From NCBI GenBank assembly GCA_964013405.1, contig CAXGWI010000026.1:1-30888 (forward strand): a DNA stretch of 30,888 nt. Reading direction: 5' to 3'. Positions 3,046 through 25,214 of the stretch are shown one piece after another; the stretch's first letter is position 1, and each line of letters begins with the position of its first letter. Source of the DNA: an uncultured Myxococcales bacterium (GTDB lineage: Bacteria > Myxococcota > UBA4151). The notes beneath the pieces are model-generated. The model did no database searches and was not told the DNA's origin. It saw nothing but the letters and a program-made list of their open reading frames with translations. The position numbers were made by a program, and so were the translations under genes.

Positions 3046-5393
3046 CTTGGGATCTCGAGCCAGCGGGGTACCCAGCGACCATCGATTTGAGCCATCACAG
3101 CCCGGTCATCGGCGCGCACCGCCACAGGAAAGCGCCGGCCGTCGGGTGTGATCCGGAAGCTCCGGGCGACCCCTCCCTCGTTACGGACGGCGACATGGAG
3201 GCGACCGGGAATACCTCCAGCCAGCCAGGGAGCCTGGAACTGGAACTCCAATCGACCGTTGCTACGGCGGAGCTTGATCCAGTCGGTCGGTTCCTCGATG
3301 ACCTCTGGGCCTTGCCGCCCTTCGCAGTCAAAGGACAGGATGGCCCCCGAGGGGAAGCGCAGCCGGCCGCTGGAGTAAGGGCTGAGGATGTAGGGGGAGG
3401 CGCCGAGGCGTAACTGTCCCTGCAGGTCCCAGCGGCGCCAGGTGGTTCCATCGGTGGCCTTGATGGCGTAGCCGGTCCCGAAACTCGGTACCAAACTGGG
3501 CTTTGGAATCAGGGTGCAGCGCGGGGGATGGACTTGGAGGGTAGGGACCTCCGAGTGAATCCTCGGCAAGCCTTCATAGGCCATGGTGAGGATTTCCAGG
3601 TAGCCGTCCGAATCCAAGTCGACCTTGGCGGCCCCCCGGCTGGAGTACGCGTGCCTGGGGTTTAAGGAGTCATCGCTGCCATGGGCGCTGAGTCCAACCT
3701 CAGCCGAGGCTTCGAGGAAAGGCCCATCCTCCTGCTGCAGGAGCAATGCATCGTAGTGGAGGCTCCAGACGATGGTGTCGATCCCCGGCGGTGGCGGCAG
3801 GCTGCCTTGGGCCAGGTAGACATCGTCTCGACCATCCCGATTAAAATCGTCGACGACGATACCCCAAGCAAAGAGGGGGAAGCCATCGACCATCGGCAGG
3901 TCTAAGCCGAGGTCTTCGCCCCGCTGGATCGCTCGGCCTTGGGCGTCAAACCGAACGGCCTTATTGGGTCCCTCGTCGCTGACATAGATCACTTCGCCTT
4001 CGCCCTCGACCACCAGCGCGCCGATGCCCATCAGAGAGTCGTTGGCGACGAGGAGATCAGGCAAGCCATCGTCATTGACATCCAGGCCGCCGAGGCCCAG
4101 GGCGCTGCCATCGTCATAGAGGGGCAGCAGTTCATGCTCAGCGAAGGGGAGGAATTGCCCATCGGGCTGCTGCCGGAAGGCTAAGTTTTGCATGGGTGCC
4201 AGGCGAAAACGCTGGCGGATATCACCGACAGGCGTGGGTTCGCTGTCACAGGTCTCTTCTTGGGGTGGACCACTGCTGTTGCGAAAGGCTCCACAGGGGT
4301 CATAGGGCTCCCCAAAGGGCTGGCGTCGGTGACTGCAGACTTCGTCGGGGGCACAGCGCACGAAGGTCGCACCGATCAAGGGCTGGTAGGGGTCACCACC
4401 CTGTTGCATCAGCATGCTGGTGAGCTCGGCCATGACCCGTTCGGAAAGTTGGCAGCCGATCCAAAGGTCGAGGCGTCCATCGTGGTCGATGTCTTCGGCG
4501 ACGGCGGCACCGGCGAAGCAACTCCTTCCTGGGTGGGCTTCGGGCAAGGCCTGAATCAGATCTGTGGTTTCCCGCTGGGGCTGAAAGCGCTCAAGGAGGA
4601 CGCTGCCATCGCCCAGGCGAAGCAATTCGTGGAAACCGTCTCCCTCTACGTCGATCCCGAAGGCGCTCGGGTACTCTGCAGCATTGGGCTCAAGCAATTC
4701 AGGCCGCGGGACGAAGTGGAGGCGCCCAGTATAAGACTGGTTCTCAAGGATCATCGCATCATCGGTTGGCGTACCCTCCCGGCGGCGGTCACCGAGATAG
4801 AGGTCGAGGTCGCCATCCCGGTCGAGATCGAACAAACCGGCACCGAAACCGTAGCCACCGGTCATCCCGGAGGGTTCGGCTGCGCGATGGTCCGTGACCC
4901 CTTCTGCGAACCGGCGTTCAAAGACCAAGCCGAGCTCTGGGTTGGGGCGGGGGAGGCAGAATCCCCCTGGAGCACAGCGTTCGGTCGCTTCACACTCGGC
5001 ATGAATTCGACAGGCCTCCTGCTGACAGACCTGATCCCGGCACCGGTGGCCCTGGGGACAGTCGCCATCCCGAGCACAGGCTAGCGCTCTTGGCTCGACG
5101 CAGCGTCCCGCCTCGCAGACCTGCGGGTCGTTGCAGTCGGAGGGGGAGTCGCATTGGGGCGGGGCACATCGGGCATCCTCGCAGATCATGGGTTGGATAC
5201 AGTCGAGATCCTCATCACAGAGGGCGATACATGCATCATCAATGCACTGTTGTGGTGACAGACAGGCCGGCCCTTCGCCACAGCCGAGGCCACTGTCGAG
5301 AGCCACTTGGCCTGCATCCGGTGGGCTTGCGGGGGGGCCCGGGCAGCCGACCAACAGCCACGAAAGCGCTAAGGCGAGGGGAGTTCGAACCAT
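3039..5393 (-). CDS. CRTAC1/ASPIC-like FG-GAP (VCBS) repeat lipoprotein with N-terminal Cys-rich repeats (copy 2)
   Basis: MVRTPLALALSWLLVGC lipobox (alternative ATG at 5405); Cys-rich repeats; DLDRDGDLDLY, DIDHDGRLDLW, DVNDDGLPDLL, DFNRDGRDDVY and DLDSDGYLEIL Ca-binding loops; divergent ASPIC/UnbV-like tail (LRFPSG...IEEP). Overlaps the DUF4215 gene tail-to-tail at 3039-3045. Confidence 0.75.
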   Translation of the reverse strand: MVRTPLALALSWLLVGCPGPPASPPDAGQVALDSGLGCGEGPACLSPQQCIDDACIALCDEDLDCIQPMICEDARCAPPQCDSPSDCNDPQVCEAGRCVEPRALACARDGDCPQGHRCRDQVCQQEACRIHAECEATERCAPGGFCLPRPNPELGLVFERRFAEGVTDHRAAEPSGMTGGYGFGAGLFDLDRDGDLDLYLGDRRREGTPTDDAMILENQSYTGRLHFVPRPELLEPNAAEYPSAFGIDVEGDGFHELLRLGDGSVLLERFQPQRETTDLIQALPEAHPGRSCFAGAAVAEDIDHDGRLDLWIGCQLSERVMAELTSMLMQQGGDPYQPLIGATFVRCAPDEVCSHRRQPFGEPYDPCGAFRNSSGPPQEETCDSEPTPVGDIRQRFRLAPMQNLAFRQQPDGQFLPFAEHELLPLYDDGSALGLGGLDVNDDGLPDLLVANDSLMGIGALVVEGEGEVIYVSDEGPNKAVRFDAQGRAIQRGEDLGLDLPMVDGFPLFAWGIVVDDFNRDGRDDVYLAQGSLPPPPGIDTIVWSLHYDALLLQQEDGPFLEASAEVGLSAHGSDDSLNPRHAYSSRGAAKVDLDSDGYLEILTMAYEGLPRIHSEVPTLQVHPPRCTLIPKPSLVPSFGTGYAIKATDGTTWRRWDLQGQLRLGASPYILSPYSSGRLRFPSGAILSFDCEGRQGPEVIEEPTDWIKLRRSNGRLEFQFQAPWLAGGIPGRLHVAVRNEGGVARSFRITPDGRRFPVAVRADDRAVMAQIDGRWVPRWLEIPSQ

Positions 5394-7795
5394 CGGGGAA
5401 TCCATCGGCCATCCACTTGGAGCATGGCCTGTATATCGCTCGCGTTGGTGGCGATATCGAAACGGGTCCGGTCCATGGATGCATGGACGATACGGCTGCT
5501 GCCATCAGCTTGGCGGAGGGCGACACGGACCACGGGTTGACCGCCATCATACCAGGGCATGTGAAGGAACACGCTGTGTCCTTCAACTTGGGCTTCCCAG
5601 CGAATCCAATTGGGTTCTTCGACCACTACGGGCCCCGGCTGCCCCCGGCAGTCGAAGGCGATCTCAGCACCGGAGGCGAAGCGGAGGCGACCCCGGGTGG
5701 CTGAACTGAGCACATGGGGAGACGCGCCCAAACGCATCTGACCCTGCATGTCCCGGCGGAACCAGGTCTCGGTACCTTGGGCTGCCACCGCATAGCCGTA
5801 GCCGTAGGTGGGGACATAGCGTGAGCGGGGCACCAGCGTGCAGCGGGCACCGGGGCCATCTCGCAATGGGACTTCGGCGTGGAGGCGGACATGGCCTTCA
5901 AAGGGCACCGTGAGCAGATCCAAAGCGCCATCGAGGTCCAAATCAGCCTTCACCGTGCCCCGGCTGGAATACACGAAGGTGTCGTCCAACGAGTCTTGGT
6001 GATCGTGGACACTCACCCCCACTTCGTCGGTGAGGATGAGAAAGCGTCCATCATCTTGCTGTAGCGCCATGAAATCGTAGTGATCGGCCCAGGCCGAAAT
6101 CGGCACCCGCTCGATCATCCCTTGAGTAACGTAGAGGTCATCATCGCCATCCCGGTCGAAGTCCTCGACCACCGTGCCCCAAGATTCCAGGTCGGTGCCG
6201 TTACGGGTCGCTAAGGTTAAGCCCACATCATCGACGATATTGATGGATGCGCCATTTTCGTAGCGAACCAGTCGATTGGGGCCCTCATCGGCGATAAAGA
6301 GATGGTCGCCCCGGCCATGAATCTTCACGAGGCCGAGGCCCATGTAGCTGTCATTGGCCGTGATGAAGTCAAGGAGCCCATCGTCGTTCATGTCGACCAT
6401 GCCGAAGGCAAGGGTCGCCCCGGAATCCTGAAAGATCAGGTCTTCTTCGTAAACCAGCGCGCCGTCGACCTGAAACAGGGCGAAATTTCGCATCACGTCC
6501 ATCTCAAGGACATCCCACTCGGCATCGATGGGACCCTCTTGCCCCGGTTGGGCGAAGAAGGTTTGGCTCAAGTTGGGTAGGCCCATGTTGATACGGTGGT
6601 AGGCGCAGCCTTCCCCTGGCGGGCAACCGAAATAGGTGGCCCCCTCTAAGGGGTAGGCCCGGACACCGGTTCGATAGATCTCTTCCGCAGAAGCGATTGC
6701 GAAGGCGTTCAACTGACAGGCGAGCAGCAAGTCGACGTCGCCATCCATATCCAGATCGGCCGGAAGTGCCGCACCGAGATTGCAGTTTGTCCGGCGAATA
6801 TCGCCCTCTGGCAAAAGGTCGAGAAGGTTCTCGCTCGATCGGGTGGGGTGGAATCGTTCCAGTCGGGCATAGCCATCCCCTAGGACCACCAGTTCGTCGT
6901 AGCCGTCACCTTCGAGGTCGAGCCCGAAGGCCGAGCTGATATCTTGGCTGCCGTGGGGCTCGCACTCACCCGGTACGGGTACAAAGCGCAGGCTGCCTGG
7001 AATGGAACGATTCTCGAACAGACAGGCTGGATCGACGTCGACCCGAACTCGATGCCGGGTGCCGAGGAAGAGATCCAAGTCGTGGTCTCCATCCATATCG
7101 AAGAGTCCCCCGCCATAGCCGTAGCCCGTCATCTGACTGGCGCGAATATTGCCGAGGGGCTCGGCGCCGTAGTGACTGGTGACCGGCTCAAAAAAACGGC
7201 GCTCGAGTTGAATGCCGTATTCGTTTGTCGGTCGGTCGAGACAGCGGTTCAGGTGACAGCGTTGGTGGCGGGGGCAATCCCCGTGGACGAGGCAGTCGCC
7301 GCCATAGCAAAGCCCGTAACTCGAACAGCGCTGCCCGTGCCCACAGTCCCCATCGGCAGCGCAGGGAGCCTCCCCAATTTCGCGGCAGAACCGCTCGTCA
7401 CAACGGGCGCTTTCGGCACAATCCGTGTCCGTCTCGCATTCCGGTTCTCGACAGAGTTGTTCCCGGCAGAGTTGGCCCTCAGGGCAATGGGTATCGACCT
7501 GGCATTGATGGTCCTGGCATTGATCATCCAGACAACTCTGCGACTCGGCGCAGTCCTCACTGGTCCAGCAGCCCGGCTCACAAAAGGTGCCGGCGGTATT
7601 GCAGCGTTGGCCCGTGGGGCAGGGACAGGGGCTTTCACAGCGATCGAGAACGCAGATTTGAGATGCTGAGCAGCCCCCACAATTGGGTTCCTGACCCCCA
7701 TCGATGACAGGCCCCGCATCGGGCACAGGCCTCGGCTCTTGGCCTGGACAGGCCAGCAGACAAAAGAGCGGGATGACAACGAGAGACCTCAGCAT
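5369..7795 (-). CDS. CRTAC1/ASPIC-like FG-GAP (VCBS) repeat lipoprotein with N-terminal Cys-rich repeats (copy 1)
   Basis: MLRSLVVIPLFCLLAC lipobox (ORF track start 7804); Cys-rich repeats; DMDGDHDLDLF, DLDMDGDVDLL, DMNDDGLLDF, DFDRDGDDDLY and DLDLDGALDLL loops. Colinear paralog of 3039-5393; both end in (I/V)DGRW(I/V)PRW. Confidence 0.75.
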   Translation of the reverse strand: MLRSLVVIPLFCLLACPGQEPRPVPDAGPVIDGGQEPNCGGCSASQICVLDRCESPCPCPTGQRCNTAGTFCEPGCWTSEDCAESQSCLDDQCQDHQCQVDTHCPEGQLCREQLCREPECETDTDCAESARCDERFCREIGEAPCAADGDCGHGQRCSSYGLCYGGDCLVHGDCPRHQRCHLNRCLDRPTNEYGIQLERRFFEPVTSHYGAEPLGNIRASQMTGYGYGGGLFDMDGDHDLDLFLGTRHRVRVDVDPACLFENRSIPGSLRFVPVPGECEPHGSQDISSAFGLDLEGDGYDELVVLGDGYARLERFHPTRSSENLLDLLPEGDIRRTNCNLGAALPADLDMDGDVDLLLACQLNAFAIASAEEIYRTGVRAYPLEGATYFGCPPGEGCAYHRINMGLPNLSQTFFAQPGQEGPIDAEWDVLEMDVMRNFALFQVDGALVYEEDLIFQDSGATLAFGMVDMNDDGLLDFITANDSYMGLGLVKIHGRGDHLFIADEGPNRLVRYENGASINIVDDVGLTLATRNGTDLESWGTVVEDFDRDGDDDLYVTQGMIERVPISAWADHYDFMALQQDDGRFLILTDEVGVSVHDHQDSLDDTFVYSSRGTVKADLDLDGALDLLTVPFEGHVRLHAEVPLRDGPGARCTLVPRSRYVPTYGYGYAVAAQGTETWFRRDMQGQMRLGASPHVLSSATRGRLRFASGAEIAFDCRGQPGPVVVEEPNWIRWEAQVEGHSVFLHMPWYDGGQPVVRVALRQADGSSRIVHASMDRTRFDIATNASDIQAMLQVDGRWIPRWFELPSP

Positions 7796-7843
7796 GGCAA
7801 GCACAGGTTAGCGCGTGCTCGCGCGAAGGGCACGTTCTGTGAC

Positions 7844-8794: not shown

Positions 8795-9645
8795 GGATTG
8801 TCCTTTCCAAAGAAGGGGACGCCTTCGTCCAAGAAGAAGTCCGGGGCCAATGCTTGGCTTGGATCGATTGCGTAGATGCTGAAATCTTCACAGCCTTCCT
8901 CGGCCAAGACCTCATCATCGATAAAGAAGTTCCCACTGCAGTCCGTCCCGGGCCGGCAGAGCACGGCCTGGGCCGCATCCGCCATGATCGCGGGGCTTCG
9001 ACAACTGCGCCGAAACTCGGGCCCGCCCAGCATATCGATGGCCGCGGTCGCGATGGCGGTGCGGGGCCACAACGCATTGACGCCAATGCCCTTGTTTCGG
9101 AGTTCCTCCGCCATGCCGAGGACGCACATACTCATACCGTACTTACTCATGGTGTAGGCCACGTGATTCTTGAACCAGCGCGGGTCCAGGTTCAGTGGGG
9201 GGGAGATATTGAGGATATGGGGATTGTCGCCTTCGGCCAGGAGGGGAATGCACTTCTGACTCATCATGAAGGTGCCGCGAACATTGACGGCATGCATCAG
9301 GTCATAGCGCTTCATCGGCGTCTCGACCGTGCCTTTTAACTGAATCGCACTGGCGTTGTTAATCAGGACGTCGAGCCCACCCCATGCCGCCTCGACCGCT
9401 TCGACAGCCGCGACCACCATGGCTTCGTCACGGACGTCGACGACGAGGGGGAGCGCCTCGCCGCCGGCGGCTTCGATGGCTTCTGCAGCCGTATAGATGG
9501 TCCCAGGAAGCATCGGATGCTTCCGGTTGGATTTGGCGGCGATCGCGATGCGTGCACCGTCCTGAGCAGCCCGCAGGGCGATCGCCTCGCCGATGCCCCG
9601 GCTCGCCCCCGTGATGAGGATGCGCTTGCCTTTTAAGTTAGCCAT
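8791..9645 (-). CDS. Short-chain dehydrogenase/reductase, HSDL2-like (284 aa)
   Basis: ITGASRGIG, INNAS, YTMSK (YxxxK), NALWPRTAIATAA. Start revised to ATG at 9645, which forms a TAATG overlap with the upstream stop; its stop overlaps the CDF start (ATGA). Confidence 0.9.
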   Translation of the reverse strand: MANLKGKRILITGASRGIGEAIALRAAQDGARIAIAAKSNRKHPMLPGTIYTAAEAIEAAGGEALPLVVDVRDEAMVVAAVEAVEAAWGGLDVLINNASAIQLKGTVETPMKRYDLMHAVNVRGTFMMSQKCIPLLAEGDNPHILNISPPLNLDPRWFKNHVAYTMSKYGMSMCVLGMAEELRNKGIGVNALWPRTAIATAAIDMLGGPEFRRSCRSPAIMADAAQAVLCRPGTDCSGNFFIDDEVLAEEGCEDFSIYAIDPSQALAPDFFLDEGVPFFGKDNP

Positions 9646-11846
9646 TATTTGTCCTTCCGAACGGGGCGTAGGGGGGTGCTCACCCTCCCACCGCAGTCTG
9701 TGGCGGGATGGTAGAGCCGCCCCTCGTGGTTCATGATCCAGACATCCAGATCCTCCCCGCTGCTGTTCAGATCGGCTACAGCACAAGCGATGAAGGTTTT
9801 TTGGTCGAGATCGATATGCGCGTTGTGCGCGGCGCATACAGCCTTGGCCCGTTCCTGGGTGACGCCTTTGCATTGGGGGCCTCGGCAGGGGAGACACTGT
9901 CCCTCCTTTGAAGTACGGCTGGGTCCACCGGGGTCGTCGCCTTCAATGGGCCCCGAACAGTAGGTGTAGCGATTCGCCTCGAAGGTTTGCTCTAGTCCGA
10001 GTTGATCCCAACTTCCCCACTGGTCGTGTTCAGAACGAAAGACGGACTGAGCTTGGTAAAGGCGTCGGAGGTTCACTTTCGCTTCAGCCTGCTTCGCTCT
10101 GCATTGCTGTTGGATGAAGTTGGGGATGCCGATCGCTGCGATCAGGGGAACGATGGGCAGATTGACGCCCCGACGCATGGAGTAGAGCTCGTCCTCGTTC
10201 AAATGAAGGGCGCTACTCAAGTCGGCATAGGGCAGCAAACGCCTCTGCATGTCAGAGGAGCCAGAGGGTTTCTCTTGGGCCGGTTCTGTTGTCTCGTCTG
10301 TTTGCGTTCCCTCCATAGCGTCTGCAAGGTCACTGAGTGCGTTGGCTGTCGCCTGAAGTTCGGCCTCTAGCTTCGGAATCAGGCGCTTAGCGAAGTCCTT
10401 GAGATCAGCTTCGAGTCCGTAGATCAACGTCGCTTCCTTGAGCCCCGATTGGCCTGGCTTAGCAGATTGGGTCTTTAGGAAGCGGCCCACGGCCTCCTCG
10501 CTGGCGCCGATGATGATGCCATCTTGGGTCTGAATCACCGTGGGCGACAGCCCAGGCATGGGGCGGGGAAGGGGCAGTCGGAGGGCCTGTTGACCCTCGA
10601 TTGGTCCTTCCTTTGCACCCTTGCTGATGAAGAAGCCGCGCAAAGCACGAAAGACTTTCGCACTGGCCTCGTCACCATCAGCCCCAAGAATGAGCAGCAG
10701 ATCTGCTGGGCTCATCGTCTTCCAGTCCGTGCTGAGGCTGGATTTCGGGTAGGTGAGAAGGAGCTCACCGTTGATCCCTGCACTGAATTCGGGCCAAGCG
10801 AGCCCCAGGGTATTGCCCATGACCATGGCCAAGCCTTGAGCCTCGCCGAGTTTCGCCCGAGTCTCCGCCATTTTGGCTGCTTCTTTTGCATCTACAAAGT
10901 CGGGGATCAGGGCGAGAAGGCCATCAAAGAGCGTGGAGAGGTTGAGACGCAGACGGATCTGTATATGGTCTCGATTCAACACCCGGTCAGCGGCTTGGGA
11001 GGGAAGCCGAGCGGGCCCGAAAATACCCCCCAAGCCCGTCTTGAGTTTGTCACCGAGAAGGAGTCGCCAGCCGTTCATGCCTTGGCTGTCATAGCTCCAG
11101 GACATGGCTCGAACATAGCGCTCCATTTCGCCTTGTTTGAGCCCGGTATCGGCCTCCCACTTCCGGGCGATGGGCCCCATATAGAGCAAGCCCAGAGCCT
11201 CGGGCTTCTGGGACGGACGGAGCCGGCTGTGCTCCGGTGAAGCAGCGAGACGCTCACCGGGGCTTGTAAGGGCCTTCCAGGGGCCAGGGTGCATCCCTTT
11301 CTGGTCCGGGGACTCGGCGGCCACAAAAAGAATGAAGTCACCCTGCTGGTAGAGGTTGGCCCGGGCTTTGCCATCCAATAGCAATTGCCGCTGACCCTTC
11401 CCCGGGGCCGAGTAGGTGACGACGGGTTGATCGATCAGCGCATCGAGGGCGGGCAGGAGCTTGTCCAAGTCCTTGGCCTTGAGGGCGACAACCAGCCGAA
11501 CGGGCTCCAGCAAGAAGCCGATGCCAATGCCTGCATCGATATCCACACCGATGGAGCGCCAGCCTTCTGTTTCAGTGGGATCAAAGCCGAATCTTGCCAG
11601 CCACTTCGTCATGTCCTCCCTGTTCTTATCGCCTGGCTTTGAGAGGTCCCGGAACAGCTTGACGCCTTCACCCAATTTCTCACTGGGGTTGCCGAGGTAG
11701 CCGATTGCAGCGGTGTGTCGGGCGGGCAGCTGTCCTTCGAGGAACTCCAGTGTGGTGGCAGATCGGCCATGAACCCGCCCTGCCCCGTGCTGGCATGCAG
11801 TCGAAAGAACGAGCGCTGCAAGTGCGCCGATCGCTTGTCTCGTCAT
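9645..11846 (-). CDS. Lipoprotein (~733 aa) with a large DUF3352-like N-terminal region and a C-terminal PilA-like type IV pilin domain
   Basis: Start revised to ATG 11846 (GGGAG SD; MTRQAIGALAALVLSTAC lipobox). C-terminal LIAAIGIPNFIQQQCRAKQAEAKVNLRRLYQAQSVFRSE...NRYTY...FIACAVADL...DVWIM follows the deltaproteobacterial PilA pattern. The DUF3352 resemblance is tentative. Confidence 0.72.
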   Translation of the reverse strand: MTRQAIGALAALVLSTACQHGAGRVHGRSATTLEFLEGQLPARHTAAIGYLGNPSEKLGEGVKLFRDLSKPGDKNREDMTKWLARFGFDPTETEGWRSIGVDIDAGIGIGFLLEPVRLVVALKAKDLDKLLPALDALIDQPVVTYSAPGKGQRQLLLDGKARANLYQQGDFILFVAAESPDQKGMHPGPWKALTSPGERLAASPEHSRLRPSQKPEALGLLYMGPIARKWEADTGLKQGEMERYVRAMSWSYDSQGMNGWRLLLGDKLKTGLGGIFGPARLPSQAADRVLNRDHIQIRLRLNLSTLFDGLLALIPDFVDAKEAAKMAETRAKLGEAQGLAMVMGNTLGLAWPEFSAGINGELLLTYPKSSLSTDWKTMSPADLLLILGADGDEASAKVFRALRGFFISKGAKEGPIEGQQALRLPLPRPMPGLSPTVIQTQDGIIIGASEEAVGRFLKTQSAKPGQSGLKEATLIYGLEADLKDFAKRLIPKLEAELQATANALSDLADAMEGTQTDETTEPAQEKPSGSSDMQRRLLPYADLSSALHLNEDELYSMRRGVNLPIVPLIAAIGIPNFIQQQCRAKQAEAKVNLRRLYQAQSVFRSEHDQWGSWDQLGLEQTFEANRYTYCSGPIEGDDPGGPSRTSKEGQCLPCRGPQCKGVTQERAKAVCAAHNAHIDLDQKTFIACAVADLNSSGEDLDVWIMNHEGRLYHPATDCGGRVSTPLRPVRKDK

Positions 11847-11895
11847 GGCTAACTCCCTGCAGCCCATAGTCCGGTGTTCCCGCTTGTGACAACCG

Positions 11896-11911
11896 TGCGG
11901 TCTAGACCAAT
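11896..11911. promoter_or_regulatory. Candidate GntR/HutC-subfamily (dre-like) operator in the divergent promoter region
   Basis: Perfect palindrome GGTCTAGACC at 11899-11908; the minus strand reads ATTGGTCTAGACCGCA; lies in the 115-bp intergenic region. Confidence 0.3.
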
Positions 11912-11961
11912 GGCGCCGGTCGTGTGTAAGCTCCTTCGCGAACTGTTTTGGAGCCCAAACG

Positions 11962-14550
11962 ATGGCCTTCTTCGGGCGCGGGAAAGACGACCGCAAATCG
12001 CCGATGGTTCGTTTGCAACGATCGGATTACCAGGGCCCAACTGAGATGCGGCAACTCATCAACGAGGTCCTCTCTGGCAGGGGCCTGAAGGCCCGCGATG
12101 TGAGCTGGTCGCTCTGTTCTCCCCGCCAGGAGCTACGGGCCATGGGGCTGAAGGTCCTGAAATCCCACTCCCTGGATTATGCCAAGCTGCTGCTGGCTGA
12201 AATGCAGGGGAAATCAAACGCTGAAATGCGTAATCTGATGCTGTCAGCTGCTGAGTTCGATGCCGCGGTGGTCACGACGGTGGCGCAAACGCTGATGGCT
12301 GAGACCAACGCACAGCGTCGGGAAAAGGGTTTCTTTCTCGTGCGCCAGGCACCTCGGGAAAAGACCCAGAGCCTCTTAGGTACGATGATCAAGGGCACCG
12401 ACCCGGAAGCCCAGGTGGTGGCCATCGACCTGCTCAAAGATGATCCGGAAGGGCTCAGGCGGGTCGGGCTTGGCGCCGCCGAATTGCAGCGCATGTGTGA
12501 GAGCGATGATGAGCGGATTCGCAGAGCGGGTTACGATTTGCTCAACGCGATGGGTCAAAGAAGCCGCGAGCAGGACCGCCTCCTCCTCAAGGGCATCACC
12601 GATGAGAGTTACCAAATCCAGAGCCTCTGTGCCCGAACGATCGGCCAGATGTTGGCCCAGGACGACGAGGAGATCGAAAGTGGTCTCATCAGTCTCCTCG
12701 CCGATGGCCGTAATCAGGTCCGTACCGCTGTCGTCGAGACCTTATCCCACTGTCCTCAGCCCCGGCGGGTGATTCGCCGTTATCTCAGCTTCATTAAGGA
12801 CCTGCCGGGCTGGGTTCGGGAGCGGGCCTTGGACAGCCTCAAGAGTTTCGGTGACCGACTGGTGGATCCCATCGTCGAACTCATGGGGGATCCGGATCGA
12901 GAGATTAAGCTCTTAGCTTTGGGCATCGGCGGCACCTTTGAAGACGAGCGCTGTGTTCAGCCCATTGTGGGCATGCTGCAAGATGAGGACTGGTGGACTC
13001 GAATTACGGCGGCGGAGACGCTGGGCCGAATCGGTGACCGACGGGCTGTCGATGCGCTCATCAAGTGTCTAGACGATAAGGATGTCCAGTGGGCTGCCAT
13101 CGAGTCCCTCGCCATGATTAAGGACAAGCGGGCGATCAAGCCGATGGCCCGCTTTCTCAATCACGAAGCCGATGAGGTCCGGATGGCAACCGTCGAAGCC
13201 TTGTCTGCCTTTGAGGACCCTGGGGTGGTGAAGGCCCTTCAGGACCGGGTCAAAAATGACCCAAGCGCCGAAGTTCAGCGCCGAGCCATCGAGCTCATCC
13301 GTGAGATCTCGGACAAAACCGGCAGCACGCAGGACGTGAAAGCCCTGGAAGCCATGGCCGCAGAGCGAGCCAGAGAGCGCTCAGGGGGTAAACTCGACGA
13401 CCTGCTGATCAAGGCCCGTCAATTGCAGTGCAGTGACGTGCATATTGCGGTGGGCCTGCCGCCGCTGTTTCGCACCGCCGGGATTATCGAACCGGTTGAA
13501 GGTGAGGAGAGGCTCGACGAAGCGGCGGCCAAGAAAGTCCTCTGTGACATTCTCACTGAGCCCCAACTGCAGCTGCTTGAGAAAGACCAGCAGATCGACT
13601 TCTGCTACGTCATCCCCAACGTCGGGCGATACCGGGCGAACATCTTTATCCAGAGACTTGGCCTGGGAGGGGTCTTCCGGATTATCCCCGGGATCGTTCC
13701 CACCTTCCGGGATGTGGGCCTGCCGGATTATCTGACGGCCGTGACCAATAACCACCAGGGCTTGGTCGTTGTTTCTGGACCGGCAGGTGCAGGAAAATCA
13801 ACAACTTTAGCGGCCCTTGTGAATCTGATTAATGAGCGCAAGCGAGCCCATATTCTCAGTGTGGAAGAGCCCGTCGAGTTCGTCCACACGATGAAGCAGA
13901 GTTTGGTGAACCAGCGGGAGGTGAATAAGCACACCCAGAGCTTCGCCAATGCGCTGCGGGGGGCTTTGCGTGAAGATCCGGACATCATCGTGATCGGTGA
14001 TATGCGGGATCCGGAGGTCATCAACATGGCCCTCGAAGCTGCGGAGACGGGCCACTTGGTCATCGGCACCATGAACACCACCAGTGCCCACAAGACCATC
14101 GATCGAGTCATCGAGAGCTTTCCGCCCAATGAGCAAGACGCTGTGCGATTGGCCTTGTCGGAGACCCTGCAGTTGGTGATCTGCCAGCGGCTCCTACCCC
14201 GAGCCGACCAGCCGGGCCAGGTCGCTTGCTTCGAGATCCTGCCCTGTGTTCAAAATGTGCGGACTCTCATTCGCGACGACAAGGTTTACCAGCTTCCAGG
14301 CATTATGGAGTTGGGTAAGACTCAGGGCATGCGCACTGCCGACATGAGCCTGGAGCAACTGATGGATGCCGGGCGAATCACCGCAGAAGATGCCTACATT
14401 CGGGCTGAGAAGAAGGAGACCTTCGAGGGCATGGTGAGTGCCCAGTTCCTCGCCGAGGTTCAGGCTCTTGAGCCGGTGAAGAAGGACGATCAGGACGGTC
14501 CAGGTAAGAAGCCCGCTACGACCGGTGCAGCGCAAGGGAGGCCCTCATGA
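11962..14550 (+). CDS. HEAT-repeat domain fused to a PilT/PilU-family type IV pilus ATPase
   Basis: Roughly the first 460 aa carry HEAT/PBS-lyase-like repeats (e.g. DEDWWTRITAAETLGRIGDRRAVDALIKCLDD). From ~13387 a PilT domain: SDVHIAVGLPP, GRYRANIF, GPAGAGKSTT, ALREDPDIIVIGDMRD, AETGHLVIGTMNT. Confidence 0.88.
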   Translation: MAFFGRGKDDRKSPMVRLQRSDYQGPTEMRQLINEVLSGRGLKARDVSWSLCSPRQELRAMGLKVLKSHSLDYAKLLLAEMQGKSNAEMRNLMLSAAEFDAAVVTTVAQTLMAETNAQRREKGFFLVRQAPREKTQSLLGTMIKGTDPEAQVVAIDLLKDDPEGLRRVGLGAAELQRMCESDDERIRRAGYDLLNAMGQRSREQDRLLLKGITDESYQIQSLCARTIGQMLAQDDEEIESGLISLLADGRNQVRTAVVETLSHCPQPRRVIRRYLSFIKDLPGWVRERALDSLKSFGDRLVDPIVELMGDPDREIKLLALGIGGTFEDERCVQPIVGMLQDEDWWTRITAAETLGRIGDRRAVDALIKCLDDKDVQWAAIESLAMIKDKRAIKPMARFLNHEADEVRMATVEALSAFEDPGVVKALQDRVKNDPSAEVQRRAIELIREISDKTGSTQDVKALEAMAAERARERSGGKLDDLLIKARQLQCSDVHIAVGLPPLFRTAGIIEPVEGEERLDEAAAKKVLCDILTEPQLQLLEKDQQIDFCYVIPNVGRYRANIFIQRLGLGGVFRIIPGIVPTFRDVGLPDYLTAVTNNHQGLVVVSGPAGAGKSTTLAALVNLINERKRAHILSVEEPVEFVHTMKQSLVNQREVNKHTQSFANALRGALREDPDIIVIGDMRDPEVINMALEAAETGHLVIGTMNTTSAHKTIDRVIESFPPNEQDAVRLALSETLQLVICQRLLPRADQPGQVACFEILPCVQNVRTLIRDDKVYQLPGIMELGKTQGMRTADMSLEQLMDAGRITAEDAYIRAEKKETFEGMVSAQFLAEVQALEPVKKDDQDGPGKKPATTGAAQGRPS

Positions 14551-15671
14551 GCGAAGGGGGGATGGAGACCAAGCGGATCACCCGCTTTCTACAGTTGATG
14601 ATCGAAAAGGGCGCCTCTGACATGCACTTCAGTGTCGGGCGCCCCCCCATGTTCCGATTGTCCGGTGAGATCGATCCGCTCCGCTACCGAGTCTTGTCCA
14701 ATCGAGACTATGTGGACCTCATTCGGCCCATCGTGGAGAAGGAGGAGGACTGGGAGCACTTTCTGACGACCGGGGACTTAGACTTCTTCTTTGCCGTGCC
14801 CAATCTCGCCCGTTTTCGCGCCAACCTGTTCATGCAGGAAGGCGGATTCGGCGCTGTGTTTCGTGTGATTCCGACCAAGATTTTGACCCTTGATCAGCTG
14901 GCGATGCCGCCGGCGGTGAAGAAGATTTGTGACATGCGCAACGGGCTCGTGTTGGTGACGGGGCCCACCGGCTCGGGTAAGTCCACCACCTTGGCGGCCA
15001 TCATCGATAAGATGAACAAGACGCGAAAGATGCATATCATCACCATCGAGGATCCCATCGAGTTCGTTCACAAGCACCAGCAAAGCGTGATTACCCAGCG
15101 GGAGATTGGGACCCACGCACCGAACTTCAACTCAGCCCTCAAGGCGGCCGTGCGTGAGGATCCAGATCTTCTCCTCGTGGGTGAGATGCGGGATCTCGAA
15201 ACCATCACCCAGGCCTTGAATGCTGCGGCCGCAGGCCTGCTCGTCTTCGGTACACTGCATACCAACTCCGCGGCCAAGACGGTCGATCGTATCGTCAATG
15301 TCTTTCCCCAGGAGGAGCAGGAGGCGGTGCGGAGTATCTTGGCCGAATCCTTGAAGGGGGTTTTGAGTCAGCAATTGTTGAAACGGATCGGTGGGGGACG
15401 GGCCGCTGCGGTGGAGATCATGTTCTCCGGCGCCGCCCTGCCGAACCTGATCCGTGAAGGGAAAACCTACCAGCTGACCGACTACATAGCGCGCGGGAAA
15501 AAGGCTGGGATGCTGACCATGGACGACGCCTTAGCCAAACTGGTGAACGAGAAGGTTGTGCCTTACCAGCCGGCCTTGGAGAAGGCGATCGATAAGCTGG
15601 AGTTCCCAGCGAAGATCGATGCGGAGATTTTCGCTGAGGCCAAGCAAGCGGCTGCGGCGGGAGCCGCCTAG
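14547..15671 (+). CDS. pilT: PilT/PilU-family type IV pilus retraction ATPase
   Basis: ASDMHFSVGRPP, RFRANLF, GPTGSGKSTT, TIEDPIE, REDPDLLLVGEMRD, FGTLHT, NLIREGK; ATGA overlap with the upstream gene. Confidence 0.92.
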   Translation: MSEGGMETKRITRFLQLMIEKGASDMHFSVGRPPMFRLSGEIDPLRYRVLSNRDYVDLIRPIVEKEEDWEHFLTTGDLDFFFAVPNLARFRANLFMQEGGFGAVFRVIPTKILTLDQLAMPPAVKKICDMRNGLVLVTGPTGSGKSTTLAAIIDKMNKTRKMHIITIEDPIEFVHKHQQSVITQREIGTHAPNFNSALKAAVREDPDLLLVGEMRDLETITQALNAAAAGLLVFGTLHTNSAAKTVDRIVNVFPQEEQEAVRSILAESLKGVLSQQLLKRIGGGRAAAVEIMFSGAALPNLIREGKTYQLTDYIARGKKAGMLTMDDALAKLVNEKVVPYQPALEKAIDKLEFPAKIDAEIFAEAKQAAAAGAA

Positions 15672-15719
15672 TGGGCGGGCGGTTCATGGCTCAACGCTCG
15701 TCGTTGAGAGGCAGGCTTG

Positions 15720-17252
15720 ATGGGCAAGCCTGAAGCTCAGATCCGTCAAAGCCTTGTAGAGGGTGATGGCGGTGAGGGAAGCCACGGGCCCGGTCCAGCC
15801 GAGTTGGAGAAGCACCCTTTTGTGAGTGGGGTGGGCTGGGTCGATCCTAAACTCCAAGCCAAGTTGGAACGGGGCGAGCCCGTGGGACGGCTGGAACGAA
15901 GTGCAGCGGGGCCCCGGGTGATCACACCCATGCCCGGCGTGCTCGTGATGGCCAACTGGCGGGTCATGGTCGGTTGGAAAGATCGTCCCGTCCCCAGGGC
16001 TGATGCGGCGCCGAAGAAACCATCGGTCGAGGCAACGACCCCGGTGACGCCACCAGCAAGCGCTCGGTCTCAGTCCGAGACCCCTTCCGAGCCGGCGGCC
16101 CCAAGCCCGAGGCCGGCGGCTGCCACCGCTGCCGGGCCCCGCCCAGAGGCGGCAGCGCCAAGGCCAGACCCCCGTCCCGTCCCGTCCCGTTCCGAGCAGA
16201 CCTTGGCACCAAGTTCTCAGCCTTCGACAATTCGTCCGGGCCCCGGAACAGAAGCGAGGCCTGGACCCCAGCAATCCGTTGCGCCATCGCCAAGGCCAGC
16301 CCCCACACCCGTTGCGAGCCCGGCCGAGCCGGCCCCGGCACCGAGTCGTCAGCCTTCGGCGCCCAGTCCTCCGCCCGAACCTGCGGCGAGGCCTGAGCCC
16401 CAGCGCCCAGCAGCCCGGTCACCTTCGACCATTGAACCGGTCAAGCCAGCAGCACCCGAAGAGCCCAAAGCCCCGGTTCAGCCGGTCGTTGAAGCCCCAT
16501 CGAGCCCGTCCTCCGCCGCTGCGGGCGCGCAGCCTGCCGGTCAGGGAGATGAGCCCCAAGATGGCGGGGGCGCTCGGGTTGTGTTGAGTCCGGAGGTTCT
16601 GGCTTCTGTTCCCAACTTCTACCGAACTGAGGTGCGACCCGAACACGGATTTGAGGCTCGGGAACTCTATATTTTACAGCGGATGATCGGCCGGTTCACT
16701 TTGAAACAGTTGATCGCCATGCGCCTCGGGATGAACGATGGGGAACTTGGCGACCTTTTGGCGAAAGCGCTGACCCATGGCGTTTTGACCGGCTTACCCC
16801 CATCGGCCATGCCCCCATCGAAAGGGGCCGACCAGCCGCAGCTGCGGGAAGCCCCAACGACCGCCGAACGGGAGCCCGCTAAGCCCGCTGAGCCCGCTGA
16901 GCCCGCTGAGCCCGCTGAGCCCCAGCCACCGGCGCCAACTGCCCCGCAACCCAGGGCTGCTAGGCCTCGGGCTCCCGAGATGCCAGTAGCTACCGCCCCG
17001 GTCGTTCCCGAGTCGAGCAGAGAACCCGAGGAGAGCATGCAACGGGTGAGCGGCTCGGCCATGCCCATGTTTCACCGGGATCGTTATCGCCCCGACTATG
17101 GCTTCACCCCCCAGCAACTCTACGTCATGCAGCGCATGATTGGTCGCTTCACCGTGGATCAATTGATCGCCATGCGTCTCGGACTGCGAGAAGGTGAAGT
17201 CCACGACCTGCTGATTCGGGCCGTGTCATTGGATGTTGTCACCCTGGAGTGA
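15720..17252 (+). CDS. Pro/Ala-rich protein with two copies of a ~63-aa domain (winged-helix-like); function unknown
   Basis: Long open frame after pilT with an internal duplication: LYILQRMIGRFTLKQLIAMRLG versus LYVMQRMIGRFTVDQLIAMRLG. Conservation of the duplicate at protein level supports this frame as coding. Confidence 0.7.
   Translation: MGKPEAQIRQSLVEGDGGEGSHGPGPAELEKHPFVSGVGWVDPKLQAKLERGEPVGRLERSAAGPRVITPMPGVLVMANWRVMVGWKDRPVPRADAAPKKPSVEATTPVTPPASARSQSETPSEPAAPSPRPAAATAAGPRPEAAAPRPDPRPVPSRSEQTLAPSSQPSTIRPGPGTEARPGPQQSVAPSPRPAPTPVASPAEPAPAPSRQPSAPSPPPEPAARPEPQRPAARSPSTIEPVKPAAPEEPKAPVQPVVEAPSSPSSAAAGAQPAGQGDEPQDGGGARVVLSPEVLASVPNFYRTEVRPEHGFEARELYILQRMIGRFTLKQLIAMRLGMNDGELGDLLAKALTHGVLTGLPPSAMPPSKGADQPQLREAPTTAEREPAKPAEPAEPAEPAEPQPPAPTAPQPRAARPRAPEMPVATAPVVPESSREPEESMQRVSGSAMPMFHRDRYRPDYGFTPQQLYVMQRMIGRFTVDQLIAMRLGLREGEVHDLLIRAVSLDVVTLE
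16171..16190 (+). repeat. (CCCGT)4 pentanucleotide tandem repeat inside a CDS
   Basis: cccgtcccgtcccgtcccgt read directly. Confidence 0.85.
16872..16922 (+). repeat. 9-bp in-frame tandem repeat (GAGCCCGCT), about 5.7 units, encoding EPA/KPA
   Basis: gagcccgct aagcccgct gagcccgct gagcccgct gagcccgct gagccc. Confidence 0.9.
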
Positions 17253-21136: not shown

Positions 21137-21296
21137 TTGGGGTCTCCGCGATCATCATAGGAGAACTCAGCGATGATTGGCTAGACTCGCTACACAACTC
21201 GCTGGGTTCGTGCGTGCCGGGACCCTGCACGCGAAGAAGGCTTGCCGGCCAGGCGTTCCCCCTATAGACGATCGCTCGCTACGGGGAGGTACCCAC

Positions 21297-21833
21297 GTGC
21301 TGCTTCAAGGCCAAGCCTTCGAGCAGTTAATCGAGCACTGGCTCGAGTCCCTCGTCCCGTTGGTTCCCTCAGGTAGCCTAATCGTCGGGATTCGAACGGG
21401 CGGAGAGCCGCTGGCTCGCCGGCTCGCGGATCGCCTCGCCCGAGAGGGGAAAGGCGCCCAGTTGGGACTGCTCGATATCGCCCTTTACCGAGATGACGTG
21501 GGTCTGCGCATGAAGACGCCCAGGGTCCTCGGTACCGAGATCCCCCAGGAGATCGATGACCGCTTCATCGTCCTCGTCGATGATGTCTTTTACACCGGTC
21601 GAACCATTCGTGCGGCCTTGAGTCGTATCGCCGACCTGGGCCGACCCAAGCATGTGCTCCTCGCCTGTCTCGCTCGCCGACCCGGGCGGGAGTTGCCCAT
21701 CGTCCCTGATGTGGTGGGGACCGAGTTGGAAGCCCCCCCCCAAGGCTTCAAAATTGAAGTGAGCATGGCTGAGGGGCTCATTCGAAGCACGGCGGTCACT
21801 GAGTTATTGCCGCTCAGCGAGGAGGATGCATGA
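21297..21833 (+). CDS. pyrR: PyrR bifunctional pyrimidine regulator / uracil phosphoribosyltransferase (divergent N-terminus)
   Basis: LDIALYRDD, IVLVDDVFYTGRTIRAA (PRPP motif), GRP, RELPI; start revised to GTG 21297 after GGGGAGG; lies directly upstream of pyrB. Confidence 0.88.
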   Translation: MLLQGQAFEQLIEHWLESLVPLVPSGSLIVGIRTGGEPLARRLADRLAREGKGAQLGLLDIALYRDDVGLRMKTPRVLGTEIPQEIDDRFIVLVDDVFYTGRTIRAALSRIADLGRPKHVLLACLARRPGRELPIVPDVVGTELEAPPQGFKIEVSMAEGLIRSTAVTELLPLSEEDA

Positions 21834-22813
21834 GGGGCGTCTCTGGGCTTGGACAGCTTGATTCCCTCGAAGGACTCACCAATCGGAGCGGTTGGCCCCA
21901 CAGCTTGTTCTCCACCGATGGCCTGCCTCGCGATGCGGCGCTGGAGATCATCGGGACCGCCCGGGAAATGGTTGAGGTCGGACGCCGGCGGGTCAAGAAG
22001 CTGCCGACCCTCCGCGGCCGGACGGTCATCAACGCCTTCTTCGAGAATTCGACTCGCACGCGGGTCAGTTTCGAACTGGCCGGCAAACGTATGGGGGCCG
22101 ATGTGATCAACTTTTCGGCCGCGGCGAGCTCCGGTGCGAAGGGCGAAACCCTCGGGGATACGGCCCGCACGCTCGCCGCAATGAACCCGGATTTGATCGT
22201 GATCCGGCACCCAGAGGGTGGGGCGCCGTGGTTTCTCCGGGAACGGGTGGGCTGTGCGGTGATCAACGCTGGTGATGGTATCAACGAACATCCCACCCAG
22301 GCGCTCCTCGATGCGCTGACGCTCATGGAGCAGCTGGGTGACTTGGATGGCCGGACCATCGCGATCGTCGGCGATGTGGCCCACAGTCGGGTGGCCCGTT
22401 CCAATATTCACTTGCTCCATACCCTGGGGGCGACGGTGATCTGCGTGAGCCCGTCGACCATGCGACCAGCCCAGATGGACCAGTCATTGAAGGCCCAGTG
22501 GACCGACGATTTGGATGCGGTGTTGCCTCGCTGCGACGCGGTCATGATGCTCCGCATCCAGCGGGAGCGCCTGCGCGAGAGCCTGTTTCCTCACAATCGG
22601 GAGTTCGCCATTCGTTTCGGCTTGAACCCCCGTCGGGCAGATCTGCTGCCCGCTCACGGCATCATCCTTCATCCCGGGCCGATGAATCGGGGCGTCGAGA
22701 TTGAGCCGGCCGTGGCCGATGGCGACCGGGCGATGATCCTGTCCCAGGTGGAAAACGGTGTCGCCGTACGCATGGCACTGCAACTCATGTTGCTGGCAAG
22801 GGGTGAAGGATGA
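21830..22813 (+). CDS. pyrB: Aspartate carbamoyltransferase catalytic subunit
   Basis: FFENSTRTRVSFE, KGETLGDT, NAGDGINEHPTQALLD, GDVAHSRVARSN, LRIQRER, HPGPMNRGVEI. Confidence 0.97.
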   Translation: MRGVSGLGQLDSLEGLTNRSGWPHSLFSTDGLPRDAALEIIGTAREMVEVGRRRVKKLPTLRGRTVINAFFENSTRTRVSFELAGKRMGADVINFSAAASSGAKGETLGDTARTLAAMNPDLIVIRHPEGGAPWFLRERVGCAVINAGDGINEHPTQALLDALTLMEQLGDLDGRTIAIVGDVAHSRVARSNIHLLHTLGATVICVSPSTMRPAQMDQSLKAQWTDDLDAVLPRCDAVMMLRIQRERLRESLFPHNREFAIRFGLNPRRADLLPAHGIILHPGPMNRGVEIEPAVADGDRAMILSQVENGVAVRMALQLMLLARGEG

Positions 22814-24111
22814 GTCTGCGTTGGATCGCTGGAGGACGGGTGATCGACCCAGGCCAGGGGGTGGACCGCCTTGGGGATGTGGAGATCGCTGATGGTCACG
22901 TGGTTGCTCTTCACCCTGAGGGAACCGCACCCGTGGGCGAGGGGACCTTGGATGCCAAGGGCCTTTGGGTCCTGCCGGGGCTCATCGACATCCATGTGCA
23001 CCTCCGGGAACCGGGTCAGGAGTACAAAGAAGATTTGCTCAGCGGTTCGAGAGCGGCCGTCGCCGGGGGGGTCACCACATTGGTGTGCATGCCCAACACG
23101 AAACCGGCGATCGACAAACGGGAAGTCGTTGGTCTTTTGCGGCGGCGAGCCGATCAGATCGGTCTCTGCGATATCCAGGTCTGCGGTGCGATCTCCCGGG
23201 GGCTGAAGGGCGAGGAGCTGGCAGACCTGGGCGAAATGGCCGAAGCCGGAGCCGCGTGCTTTAGCGATGACGGCTATCCGGTGATGAATGCGGGGCTGCT
23301 GCGCCGGGCCTTTGAGTACGCGAGCGATTTGAACCTCATGCTCATGCTCCACGAGGAAGAGATCGACCTGTCCAATGGTGGCTCCATGCATGAAGGGGCC
23401 GTGAGCAGCCGAGCCGGTCTGCGGGGGATTCCCGCAGCCTCTGAGTCTTCGTTGATCGCCCGAGATTTGGAGATCGCCCACGAGTTTGGTGGGCGCATGC
23501 ATGTCTGTCATATGAGCACCAAGCGGGGTGTGGAACTGGTTCGGGCTGCGAAGGCCCGCGGCTGGCCTGTGAGTGCGGAAGTCACGCCGCACCATTTGTT
23601 TCTGACGGATTTAGCGGTGGTTGAATCCGATTACCATGGGCACACTAAGATGAACCCGCCGCTCCGCTCCCGAGAGCATGTCCAAGCGCTGCGAGAGGGG
23701 CTTCGGGACGGCACGATCGAAGCGATTGCAACGGACCACGCGCCCCATGGTGATGTGGAAAAGGAAGAAGCCTTCGGCTGCTGTGCGTTTGGCGTCACCG
23801 GCTTGGAAACCAGCTTTGCCCTCAGTTTGCGATTGGTGGATGAGGGGGTCATCGACTTGTCTCGGGCCGTTGAACTTCATACCGCTGGCCCAGCCAACGT
23901 GATGGGCTGGAGCGATCGGGGGCGCCTTGAGCCCGGCCGCCGGGCTGATCTGTGTTTAGTGGATCCAGAAGTGGTCTGGACCGTCGATCCGAACGAGGGC
24001 TTCTCGAAGAGTGTCAACACGCCTTTCGTTGGCTGGCAACTCAAAGGGCGAGTCTGCACCACCATCTTCGAAGGTAACATCGTTTATCAAAATGGAAGGC
24101 CTGCACGATGA
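22810..24111 (+). CDS. pyrC: Dihydroorotase (long, class I)
   Basis: DIHVHLREPG, CMPNT, EVTPHHL, KMNPPLR, IATDHAPH, SKSVNTPF. Confidence 0.96.
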   Translation: MSLRWIAGGRVIDPGQGVDRLGDVEIADGHVVALHPEGTAPVGEGTLDAKGLWVLPGLIDIHVHLREPGQEYKEDLLSGSRAAVAGGVTTLVCMPNTKPAIDKREVVGLLRRRADQIGLCDIQVCGAISRGLKGEELADLGEMAEAGAACFSDDGYPVMNAGLLRRAFEYASDLNLMLMLHEEEIDLSNGGSMHEGAVSSRAGLRGIPAASESSLIARDLEIAHEFGGRMHVCHMSTKRGVELVRAAKARGWPVSAEVTPHHLFLTDLAVVESDYHGHTKMNPPLRSREHVQALREGLRDGTIEAIATDHAPHGDVEKEEAFGCCAFGVTGLETSFALSLRLVDEGVIDLSRAVELHTAGPANVMGWSDRGRLEPGRRADLCLVDPEVVWTVDPNEGFSKSVNTPFVGWQLKGRVCTTIFEGNIVYQNGRPAR

Positions 24112-25214
24112 CAACAGCGACCCTGATACTGGCCGATGGTCGGCGTCTGCAGGGCGAAGGCTTTGGGGCTGAGGGCATAAGCTTTGGCGAAGTGGTCTTC
24201 AACACGGCCATGTGGGGTTACCAAGAGATCCTGACCGACCCCTCCTATCGGCGTCAGATCGTCACCCTGACTTCCGCGGAGATCGGGAATTACGGCTGTG
24301 TTCCCCGGGATGATGAGTCCGCCGGGCCTCAAGTGGCCGGCTTGATTATTCGGGCCCTCAGTCCGCTCGCCAGCAACCACCGGTCTGAAGAAGATCTCGA
24401 TCGTTATCTGCGGCGCCACGGTGTGGTGGCGATCCGTGGCATCGACACCCGGGCCTTGACCCGTTCGATCCGCGATGAGGGGGCGATTCCGGGAGCCATC
24501 TGTTTTGGCGACGATCTCGACCTGGACGGGATCGCAGCCGAACTGGCTGAGCAGCCTTCGATGGAGGGATCTGACTTAGCCTCGGAGGTCACGACCTCAT
24601 CGGTCTATGAATGGGGCGTCAATAGTGCGGGCGAGGATCGTCGCGGTGAGGGCAGCTACCACGTGGTGGCCTATGACTTCGGTGTGAAGCGGAACATCTT
24701 GCGACTCCTCAAGGACGCTGGAGCTCGAGTCACCGTGGTTCCTGCAAACACGTCAGCGGCGGCCGTTGATGCGCTGTCCCCCGACGGGATCTTTCTCTCC
24801 AACGGCCCCGGTGACCCGGCCGCTGTGGACTATGTGTTGCCGGTGATCGAGGCGTTGATGGGTCGTTATCCTACCTTTGGTATTTGTCTGGGGCATCAAC
24901 TCATGGCCCTCAGCCAGGGGGCGGCAACCTTCAAGATGAAGTTTGGTCACCGCGGCGGTAATCATCCCGTGCAGCACTTCAAGGCCGAGCGGGTAGAGAT
25001 CACCAGTCAAAATCACGGATTTGCGGTCAGTGATGAGGGGCTGCCCGAGCACCTTGTTGTCACCCACCGTCATCTCAATGACCAGACCATCGCCGGCCTC
25101 CAGTACGATGGCTTTCGAGCCTTTTCGGTCCAGTTCCACCCCGAGGCTGCCCCTGGGCCCCATGACAGCCGCTCCCTGTTTTACCAGTTTCGCCAACTGA
25201 TCGAGTCGTCATGA
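24108..25214 (+). CDS. carA: Carbamoyl-phosphate synthase small subunit
   Basis: GEVVFNT, GYQEILTDPSY, SNGPGDP, FGICLGHQ, SQNHGF, VQFHPEAAPGPHD. Confidence 0.97.
   Translation: MTTATLILADGRRLQGEGFGAEGISFGEVVFNTAMWGYQEILTDPSYRRQIVTLTSAEIGNYGCVPRDDESAGPQVAGLIIRALSPLASNHRSEEDLDRYLRRHGVVAIRGIDTRALTRSIRDEGAIPGAICFGDDLDLDGIAAELAEQPSMEGSDLASEVTTSSVYEWGVNSAGEDRRGEGSYHVVAYDFGVKRNILRLLKDAGARVTVVPANTSAAAVDALSPDGIFLSNGPGDPAAVDYVLPVIEALMGRYPTFGICLGHQLMALSQGAATFKMKFGHRGGNHPVQHFKAERVEITSQNHGFAVSDEGLPEHLVVTHRHLNDQTIAGLQYDGFRAFSVQFHPEAAPGPHDSRSLFYQFRQLIESS

Follow-up and report, generated by a model that had tools for sequence, protein, structure and literature searches.

We analyzed a 30,888-nucleotide (nt) window (the whole stretch of DNA under study, positions 1 to 30,888 of contig CAXGWI010000026.1, assembly GCA_964013405.1) from an uncultured Myxococcales bacterium, and found that the conserved unit within it is a pair of adjacent PilT-family genes, the first encoding a PilT fused to an N-terminal HEAT-repeat arm (PilT-A) and the second a PilT of ordinary length (PilT-B). 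This HEAT-PilT/PilT pair is apparently an undescribed accessory PilT motor. The two genes are kept together and their products have lost different ATP-site residues, and therefore likely form one mixed motor; we posit, with a probability of about one half, that the pair is a conserved accessory retraction-type module whose subunits form a single mixed ring acting on the type IVa pilus machine, whose genes lie at other places in the genome. The original prediction had viewed the locus as a stand-alone divergon, or possibly a repurposed machine, in which a lipoprotein with a PilA-like C-terminus faces the PilT pair and a downstream proline-rich (Pro-rich) gene. Its open reading frames (ORFs), the 115-bp divergent gap, the coupled PilT genes, the HEAT solenoid, the PilA-like C-terminus, and the Pro-rich protein with its duplicated domain were all confirmed, and its suggestion of an accessory module holds for the pair, which is conserved across loci. 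All four genes exist, yet together they do not make up a single system.

Both proteins passed the TIGR01420 family model (cut-off 319 bits), with 399 bits for PilT-A and 435 bits for PilT-B, and their best sequence matches in the Protein Data Bank had E-values of 1e-87 to 1e-75. PilT-A also matched HEAT_2 (E 3e-38), and its arm resembles alphaRep binding scaffolds, with the position of the arm against the ATPase not fixed in the predicted model (mean predicted local distance difference test score, pLDDT, 81; whole-chain predicted template modelling score 0.55). The two genes overlap by four bases. A relative 86% identical to the fusion is labelled 'Myxococcales bacterium' by its source, and a HEAT-domain profile (E <= 1e-25) matched 42 of the 401 genomes of the phylum, as well as 17 of 251 Acidobacteriota genomes, a tally that includes one unpublished genome (G429), the DNA of which was left aside. 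Forty-eight loci were examined, 46 of them with the full fusion (one was cut, and one had HEAT without PilT), and a second PilT gene lay no more than 131 nt downstream in 40 of these 46; two were at contig ends, and the four exceptions all belonged to one genus. The fusions of the short type (about 830–870 amino acids (aa), including that of the window) were paired in 16 of 16 cases, and 14 of the 15 Acidobacteriota loci fetched were paired as well. Pooled, the short-type fusions (Myxococcota-like and Acidobacteriota) had a second PilT directly downstream in 30 of 31 loci, in counts where kin are not independent; the partner PilT, proposed as a neighbour of HEAT-PilT, does recur. A long type, of about 940 aa, has its own partner PilT, followed by a third gene for a TPR-Ser/Thr kinase, with Pkinase matched in all six loci scanned (L025, L026, L027, L032, L199, and L214).

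A contig scan with generic PilT patterns gave 80 loci with three HEAT fusions, the remainder serving as outgroup and controls; a search of 1.84 billion representatives was swamped by generic HEAT proteins and left unused, and clustering the flanking ORFs all against all produced too much noise in this GC-rich DNA. The listings from our literature searches, which left most subscription papers outside, yielded nothing relevant on HEAT-PilT fusions, on mixed PilT rings of this kind, or on pilins fused to DUF3352; the literature covered includes PMC12607626, 10.1101/2025.10.30.685630, PMC6060248, and PMC5065972.

The evidence for a mixed ring lies in the ATP-site residues (numbered here as in Pseudomonas aeruginosa PilT; the short type comprises 31 fusions and 30 partners, compared with 140 other PilT/PilU sequences). 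In the window, PilT-A keeps the equivalents of R82, R97, K136, T220, and H222, with substitutions T132A, D160E, E204D, and H229N (its own A608, E636, D680, and N705), and PilT-B keeps those of T132, K136, E204, and H229, with substitutions T220A and H222L (its own A229 and L231), so that this pair displays the full pattern of complementary loss. Across the short type, T220 and H222 are kept in 31/31 PilT-A proteins, with H229 lost in 22/31, E204 (to D) in 15/31, and T132 in 29/31; PilT-B proteins keep T132, E204, and H229 in 30/30, with H222 lost in 30/30 and T220 in 13/30. The 140 other PilT/PilU proteins keep these positions almost without exception (E204 in 140, H229 in 139, and H222, T220, and T132 in 138 each). 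By the per-pair table, in which kin are not independent, loss of T220 in PilT-B is commoner where PilT-A is without H229. Residues R82, R97, K136, E159, E163, R176, and R194 are intact in all 31 PilT-A and all 30 PilT-B proteins. In the long type, the partners have lost H222 in 25/25. As a separate observation, two PilT genes in locus L095 (5588–10380), the second without H222, come immediately after a gene for a Ser/Thr kinase with HEAT repeats.

Structurally, published work places H229 on the subunit that binds the nucleotide and T220 on the next one. In PilB, H420 binds both the gamma-phosphate and, in the following packing unit, T411, which lies between H413 and H420 (PMC5424180), and in PilT the distance from T220 of subunit N to H229 of subunit N+1 measures the closed interface (10.64898/2026.02.06.704419). 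PilT-A would thus have lost residues for its own nucleotide (E204, H229, and T132) and kept those reaching into its neighbour's site (T220 and H222), and PilT-B would be the reverse, with its nucleotide side intact and its facing side lost. Since T220 and H229 are on neighbouring subunits, a ring in which A and B alternate would restore three intact sites, each combining the nucleotide side of PilT-B with the facing side of PilT-A, and would leave three weak ones; a ring of PilT-A alone or of PilT-B alone would be impaired at all six. Functionally, H229A stops twitching, H222A reduces it, and E204A cannot hydrolyse ATP (PMC10187167), and an alternating C3 state is possible for PilT (10.1101/672212). 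A ring with three intact and three weak sites might be a slower or conditional motor that engages PilC, and the HEAT arm might serve as its input, binding proteins so as to dock or switch the ring; in related PilT-A proteins, a disordered or MshEN-like N-terminus takes the position of the arm. More tentatively, we suggest an alternating 3+3 ring in which three ATP sites are rebuilt and labour is divided much as in F1, with a swappable input in the form of HEAT repeats, a disordered tail, or an MshEN-like domain.

Evolutionarily, we compared the pair with its relatives in two trees, one built with FastTree from 240 sequences and the other an IQ-TREE quick tree of 86; the second is no independent test, since groups were named from the first. 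In both trees, neither PilT-A nor PilT-B falls with canonical PilT or PilU. PilT-A groups with the first members of other PilT pairs, including the Pro/Ala-tailed proteins of genomes G014 and G037 (Shimodaira–Hasegawa-like approximate likelihood ratio test, SH-aLRT, 87 for the inner set and 95 for a 20-row set that includes two unpaired proteins), and PilT-B with the second members of those pairs (SH-aLRT 82–84). Distances among PilT-A and among PilT-B proteins were correlated over 30 pairs (r 0.96), a value that shared descent alone can give. Monophyly of the two HEAT types, short plus long, was not rejected by an approximately unbiased test (p 0.48), so the fusion may have arisen once or twice. 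The first members of two related pairs (L048:1282–2814 and L077:9542–11020) carry an N-terminal LLGRI...L..IDLDQL motif, which we take to resemble the MshEN cyclic di-GMP-binding domain, although neither has a Pfam MshEN match. The G014 and G037 pairs, with their Pro/Ala-rich N-terminus, have H229N in the first member and H222V in the second, the same split as in the window, and fit the published description of Myxococcus xanthus MXAN_6705/6706 (PMC13584747), an adjacent PilT pair whose first member is N-terminally extended, like that of the window, but by a disordered segment where PilT-A has HEAT repeats. From these look-alikes, matched by description and not by MXAN sequence, we infer that the window pair is orthologous to MXAN_6705/6706. 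As to the possibility, raised in the original prediction, that the pair falls in a characterized clade of the same architecture and known function, the pair has a partly studied putative relative, whose N-terminus differs. PMC13584747 calls the His boxes conserved and reports partial motility defects without a mechanism, with MXAN_6706 deletion partly impairing social (S-) motility.

Several points weigh against the mixed ring. Nine of the 31 PilT-A proteins keep both E204 and H229 and need no partner on that side; long-type fusions mostly keep H229 (25/29), and the second gene of a non-HEAT pair (L081) keeps H222. The E204D and H229N substitutions are milder than the published alanine mutants, and we derive both the placement of H222 on the facing (T220) side and the equivalence of PilB T327 to PilT T132 from text passages, not coordinates. 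In addition, PilT-PilU, the kind of two-motor system that has been studied, forms stacked homohexamers, one locus (L274) has a PilT-A without a partner, and MXAN_6706 deletion is described as among the strongest of three where MXAN_6705 deletion is not (PMC13584747), unequal phenotypes that, should the orthology be correct, do not match a strictly obligate ring. The last three points favour the main rival, in our judgment unlikely, in which PilT-B is a slow homohexamer (a natural H222 variant) and HEAT-PilT a separate weak ring or pseudo-ATPase that stacks on or regulates PilT-B, as PilU does on PilT. This would also accord with the complete retention of nucleotide-side residues in 30/30 PilT-B proteins and with the report that PilT carrying H222A retains retraction at a threefold lower speed (10.1101/2020.02.12.946426), but it leaves unexplained why T220 and H222 are kept in every PilT-A despite the H229 and E204 losses, and why T220 loss in PilT-B tracks H229 loss in PilT-A, with the same caveat about kinship.

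The link to a pilus has evidence on both sides. The genome (94% complete) has its core pil genes on other contigs, with pilB-pilT-pilC on C46, pilA on C2, pilQ on C154, and pilM on C39, in addition to a PilU-like copy on C18, and the locus is thus accessory, not stand-alone; the original statement that pilB, pilC, pilD, and pilMNOPQ are missing is accurate for the window, where none of the 23 ORFs scanned (five of them wrong-strand picks at the right end) matched the PilB, PilC, PilD, or PilM-Q families, but not for the genome. PilB scored over its cut-off in all 16 genomes tested with the short type, and six of 31 short-type loci, at three separate places in the tree, adjoin minor pilin/pilY1 or pilC-like/pilB-like genes. 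Among these, the pair is divergent from minor-pilin genes in L046, L189, L281, L282, and L283, with a PilY1-domain gene in L046, L189, and L282; in L274 (4472–10034, minus strand) the lone HEAT-PilT is immediately followed by a T2SSF (PilC-like) gene and an MshEN-bearing PilB/GspE-like ATPase gene, with prepilin genes further upstream. Against a pilus role, the PilB co-occurrence comes without a control set, in phyla with widespread type IV pili; the fetched flanks of 25 of 31 loci are devoid of pilus genes; and AIRNLIRE, which published modelling puts at the contact with PilC, is altered in both members of the pair, to NVRTLIRD in PilT-A and ALPNLIRE in PilT-B (partly kept). These last two points, together with the TPR-Ser/Thr kinase gene of the long-type loci, are what one would expect had the pair left the pilus to drive or sense something else, be it a different platform in the membrane, a signalling scaffold, or the handling of DNA, while its HEAT arm bound a new client. 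We regard this as quite improbable given the three separate lineages that place the pair beside pilus genes and the motility phenotype of the putative M. xanthus relatives (PMC13584747). Still less probable is that the two are redundant or decaying paralogues, each acting alone or inactive: catalytic residues are lost in PilT-A, PilT-A is alone in L274, and four long-type loci lack an adjacent partner, but the seven motor residues listed above are invariably intact, reading frames are intact across two phyla, and the losses are position-specific.

Beyond the pair, the genes for the lipoprotein and the Pro-rich protein are neighbours specific to the lineage (Table 1). The lipoprotein C-terminus matched the PilA model NF041775 (E 1.7e-13) far under its 400-bit cut-off and is 36–40% identical to the genome's own PilA, in an alignment that begins after the G/FTLIE cleavage site and Glu5. 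The class III signal that marks a type IVa major pilin (G/F cleavage site plus Glu5) is not found in this C-terminus, and the pilin part is therefore predicted, from its sequence, to be unable to enter a pilus. Residues 20–560 have a DUF3352-like fold (template modelling (TM) score 0.67 between predicted models; atlas features 0.95, from a cluster in which 36% of members carry the family), although the DUF3352 profile PF11832 does not match the sequence. The likeness extends to DUF3352-fold/pilin-like fusions (SBP_bac_10, T2SSG; mostly Planctomycetota) at TM 0.62–0.67, from which the lipoprotein differs in lacking a PF11832 match and in drawing its pilin part from the lineage's own PilA. One full-length relative was found (P0049, 76% identity), which has a second pilin-like domain in tandem, whereas 60 related genomes match the pilin part only. 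The other 71 loci fetched contained no copy by a lipoprotein hidden Markov model (HMM) built from two sequences, whose single weak match (E 0.005) is a free pilin, and two metagenome scans for relatives gave 81 and 277 pattern matches, none confirmed. In G001, a genome of the same genus, the 115-bp intergenic DNA is kept and runs straight into the SDR gene whose start the lipoprotein stop overlaps in the window (TAATG); the lipoprotein was either inserted at this locus or lost in G001. Its GC and GC3 values (0.60/0.68) are similar to those of its neighbours and so give no hint that the gene was acquired recently from elsewhere. As a local neighbour, the lipoprotein stands outside the conserved module, and its proposed recurrence beside the pair did not hold up.

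The Pro-rich gene, by comparison, may be a family-level accessory. It occurs in five of 61 genomes, all of the window's family (f1), and lies downstream of the PilT pair in G001–G003; its proposed recurrence as a neighbour is accordingly confined to one family. The protein has a short conserved N-terminal motif and two ~75-aa domain copies that are 46% identical, genus g1 having two copies and genus g2 one. The model of this domain (pLDDT 91) has middling best structural matches of winged-helix type (Z 5–6.5; Foldseek E >=0.2), and an atlas search with the duplicated domain returned unnamed matches only, all below 0.9. The reading of lipoprotein, PilT pair, and Pro-rich protein as one stand-alone pilus-derived machine, which rests on the divergent layout and on its possible single recurrence (P0049 and a HEAT-PilT, P0003, at 81–84% identity, both list a longest contig of 6,492 bases, unconfirmed as the same contig), is scarcely tenable and already largely refuted, given the absence of the lipoprotein from the 71 other loci and from the same place in G001, the relatives that match its pilin part only, its coupling to the SDR gene and lack of a pilin cleavage site, and its predicted location outside the cytoplasm with the ATPases inside.

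Table 1 Features of the PilT pair and its neighbours in the window.
Feature	Position	Strand	Remarks
Lipoprotein, 733 aa	9645..11846	-	likely start ATG 11846, stop 9645; lipobox-like LSTA-C18
Pilin-like segment of lipoprotein, aa 563-720	9687..10160	-	likeness to genome's own PilA
Divergent intergenic region, 115 bp	11847..11961		between lipoprotein and HEAT-PilT starts
HEAT-PilT fusion (PilT-A), 862 aa	11962..14550	+	HEAT_2 and TIGR01420; core of module
HEAT-repeat solenoid of PilT-A	11962..13371	+	~460 aa, alphaRep/PBS-type, all helical in model
Partner PilT (PilT-B), 374 aa	14547..15671	+	TIGR01420; core of module
Pro-rich protein, ~510 aa	15720..17252	+	alternative start TTG 15717; third operon gene, family f1 only
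Winged-helix-type domain, copy 1 of Pro-rich protein	16581..16796	+	model and structural matches
Winged-helix-type domain, copy 2 of Pro-rich protein	17028..17249	+	duplicate of copy 1

A scan for sigma-70-like promoters gave three sites against 1.7 expected, none of them in the 115-bp intergenic region. Short contigs of one RNA run fall on the HEAT-PilT and Pro-rich genes, from which we draw no claim of expression or habitat, and fewer than one fifth of the words were present in sequencing runs, with no piece across the lipoprotein-PilT gap. Elsewhere in the window, positions 3039–7804 (minus strand) and 1042–3045 (plus strand) encode a tandem pair of FG-GAP repeat proteins, which G001 has as well, together with a DUF4215 repeat protein; in G004, a DUF4215 gene is located close to the Pro-rich gene. 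Positions 21177–26074 (plus strand) hold pyrR-pyrB-pyrC-carA-like genes and then a polyprenyl synthetase gene, with genes for phospholipase D and MscS lying upstream, on the minus strand. The ORFs at 26157–29578 (plus strand) presumably encode a Cys-/Gly-rich exported protein of 558 aa and an NAD(P) transhydrogenase alpha-like protein. A Pfam ExsD match among the window ORFs (E 0.0095) was dismissed as noise.

Why myxobacteria carry several PilT paralogues, and what retracts their pili without pilT, are given as open questions in PMC13584747, and the pair offers a residue-level model, a mixed ring with three working sites. If such a ring exists, the unexplained retraction of myxobacterial pili without PilT might be traced to it, and it would be a new architecture among pilus motors, which are described as homohexamers, and a natural tool for asking how many sites a PilT ring needs.

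Among known systems, a formal analogy is F1-ATPase, whose alpha3beta3 ring alternates catalytic and non-catalytic paralogues; the putative mixed PilT ring would likewise have three working sites, in an unrelated function. Canonical PilT (P. aeruginosa 3JVU/3JVV, Aquifex 2EWV/2GSZ, and Geobacter 6OJX/5ZFQ) shares with both window proteins a passing TIGR01420 score and an intact Walker A lysine (K136), Asp-box (E159/E163), and arginine fingers (R82/R97). The window pair differs from it in the 460-aa HEAT arm of PilT-A, in not keeping E204 and both His-box histidines throughout (E204D/H229N in PilT-A; T220A/H222L in PilT-B), in the altered AIRNLIRE of both proteins, and in its place outside pilB-pilT-pilC, the canonical copy being on C46 and grouping elsewhere in the tree. 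The PilT-PilU systems of Vibrio cholerae and P. aeruginosa (in M. xanthus, MXAN_1995) also comprise two adjacent PilT-family genes, and an accessory retraction role is plausible. However, PilU keeps both histidines and the window pair does not, neither window protein groups with PilU, the genome has its own PilU-like copy, and PilT-PilU is described as stacked homohexamers.

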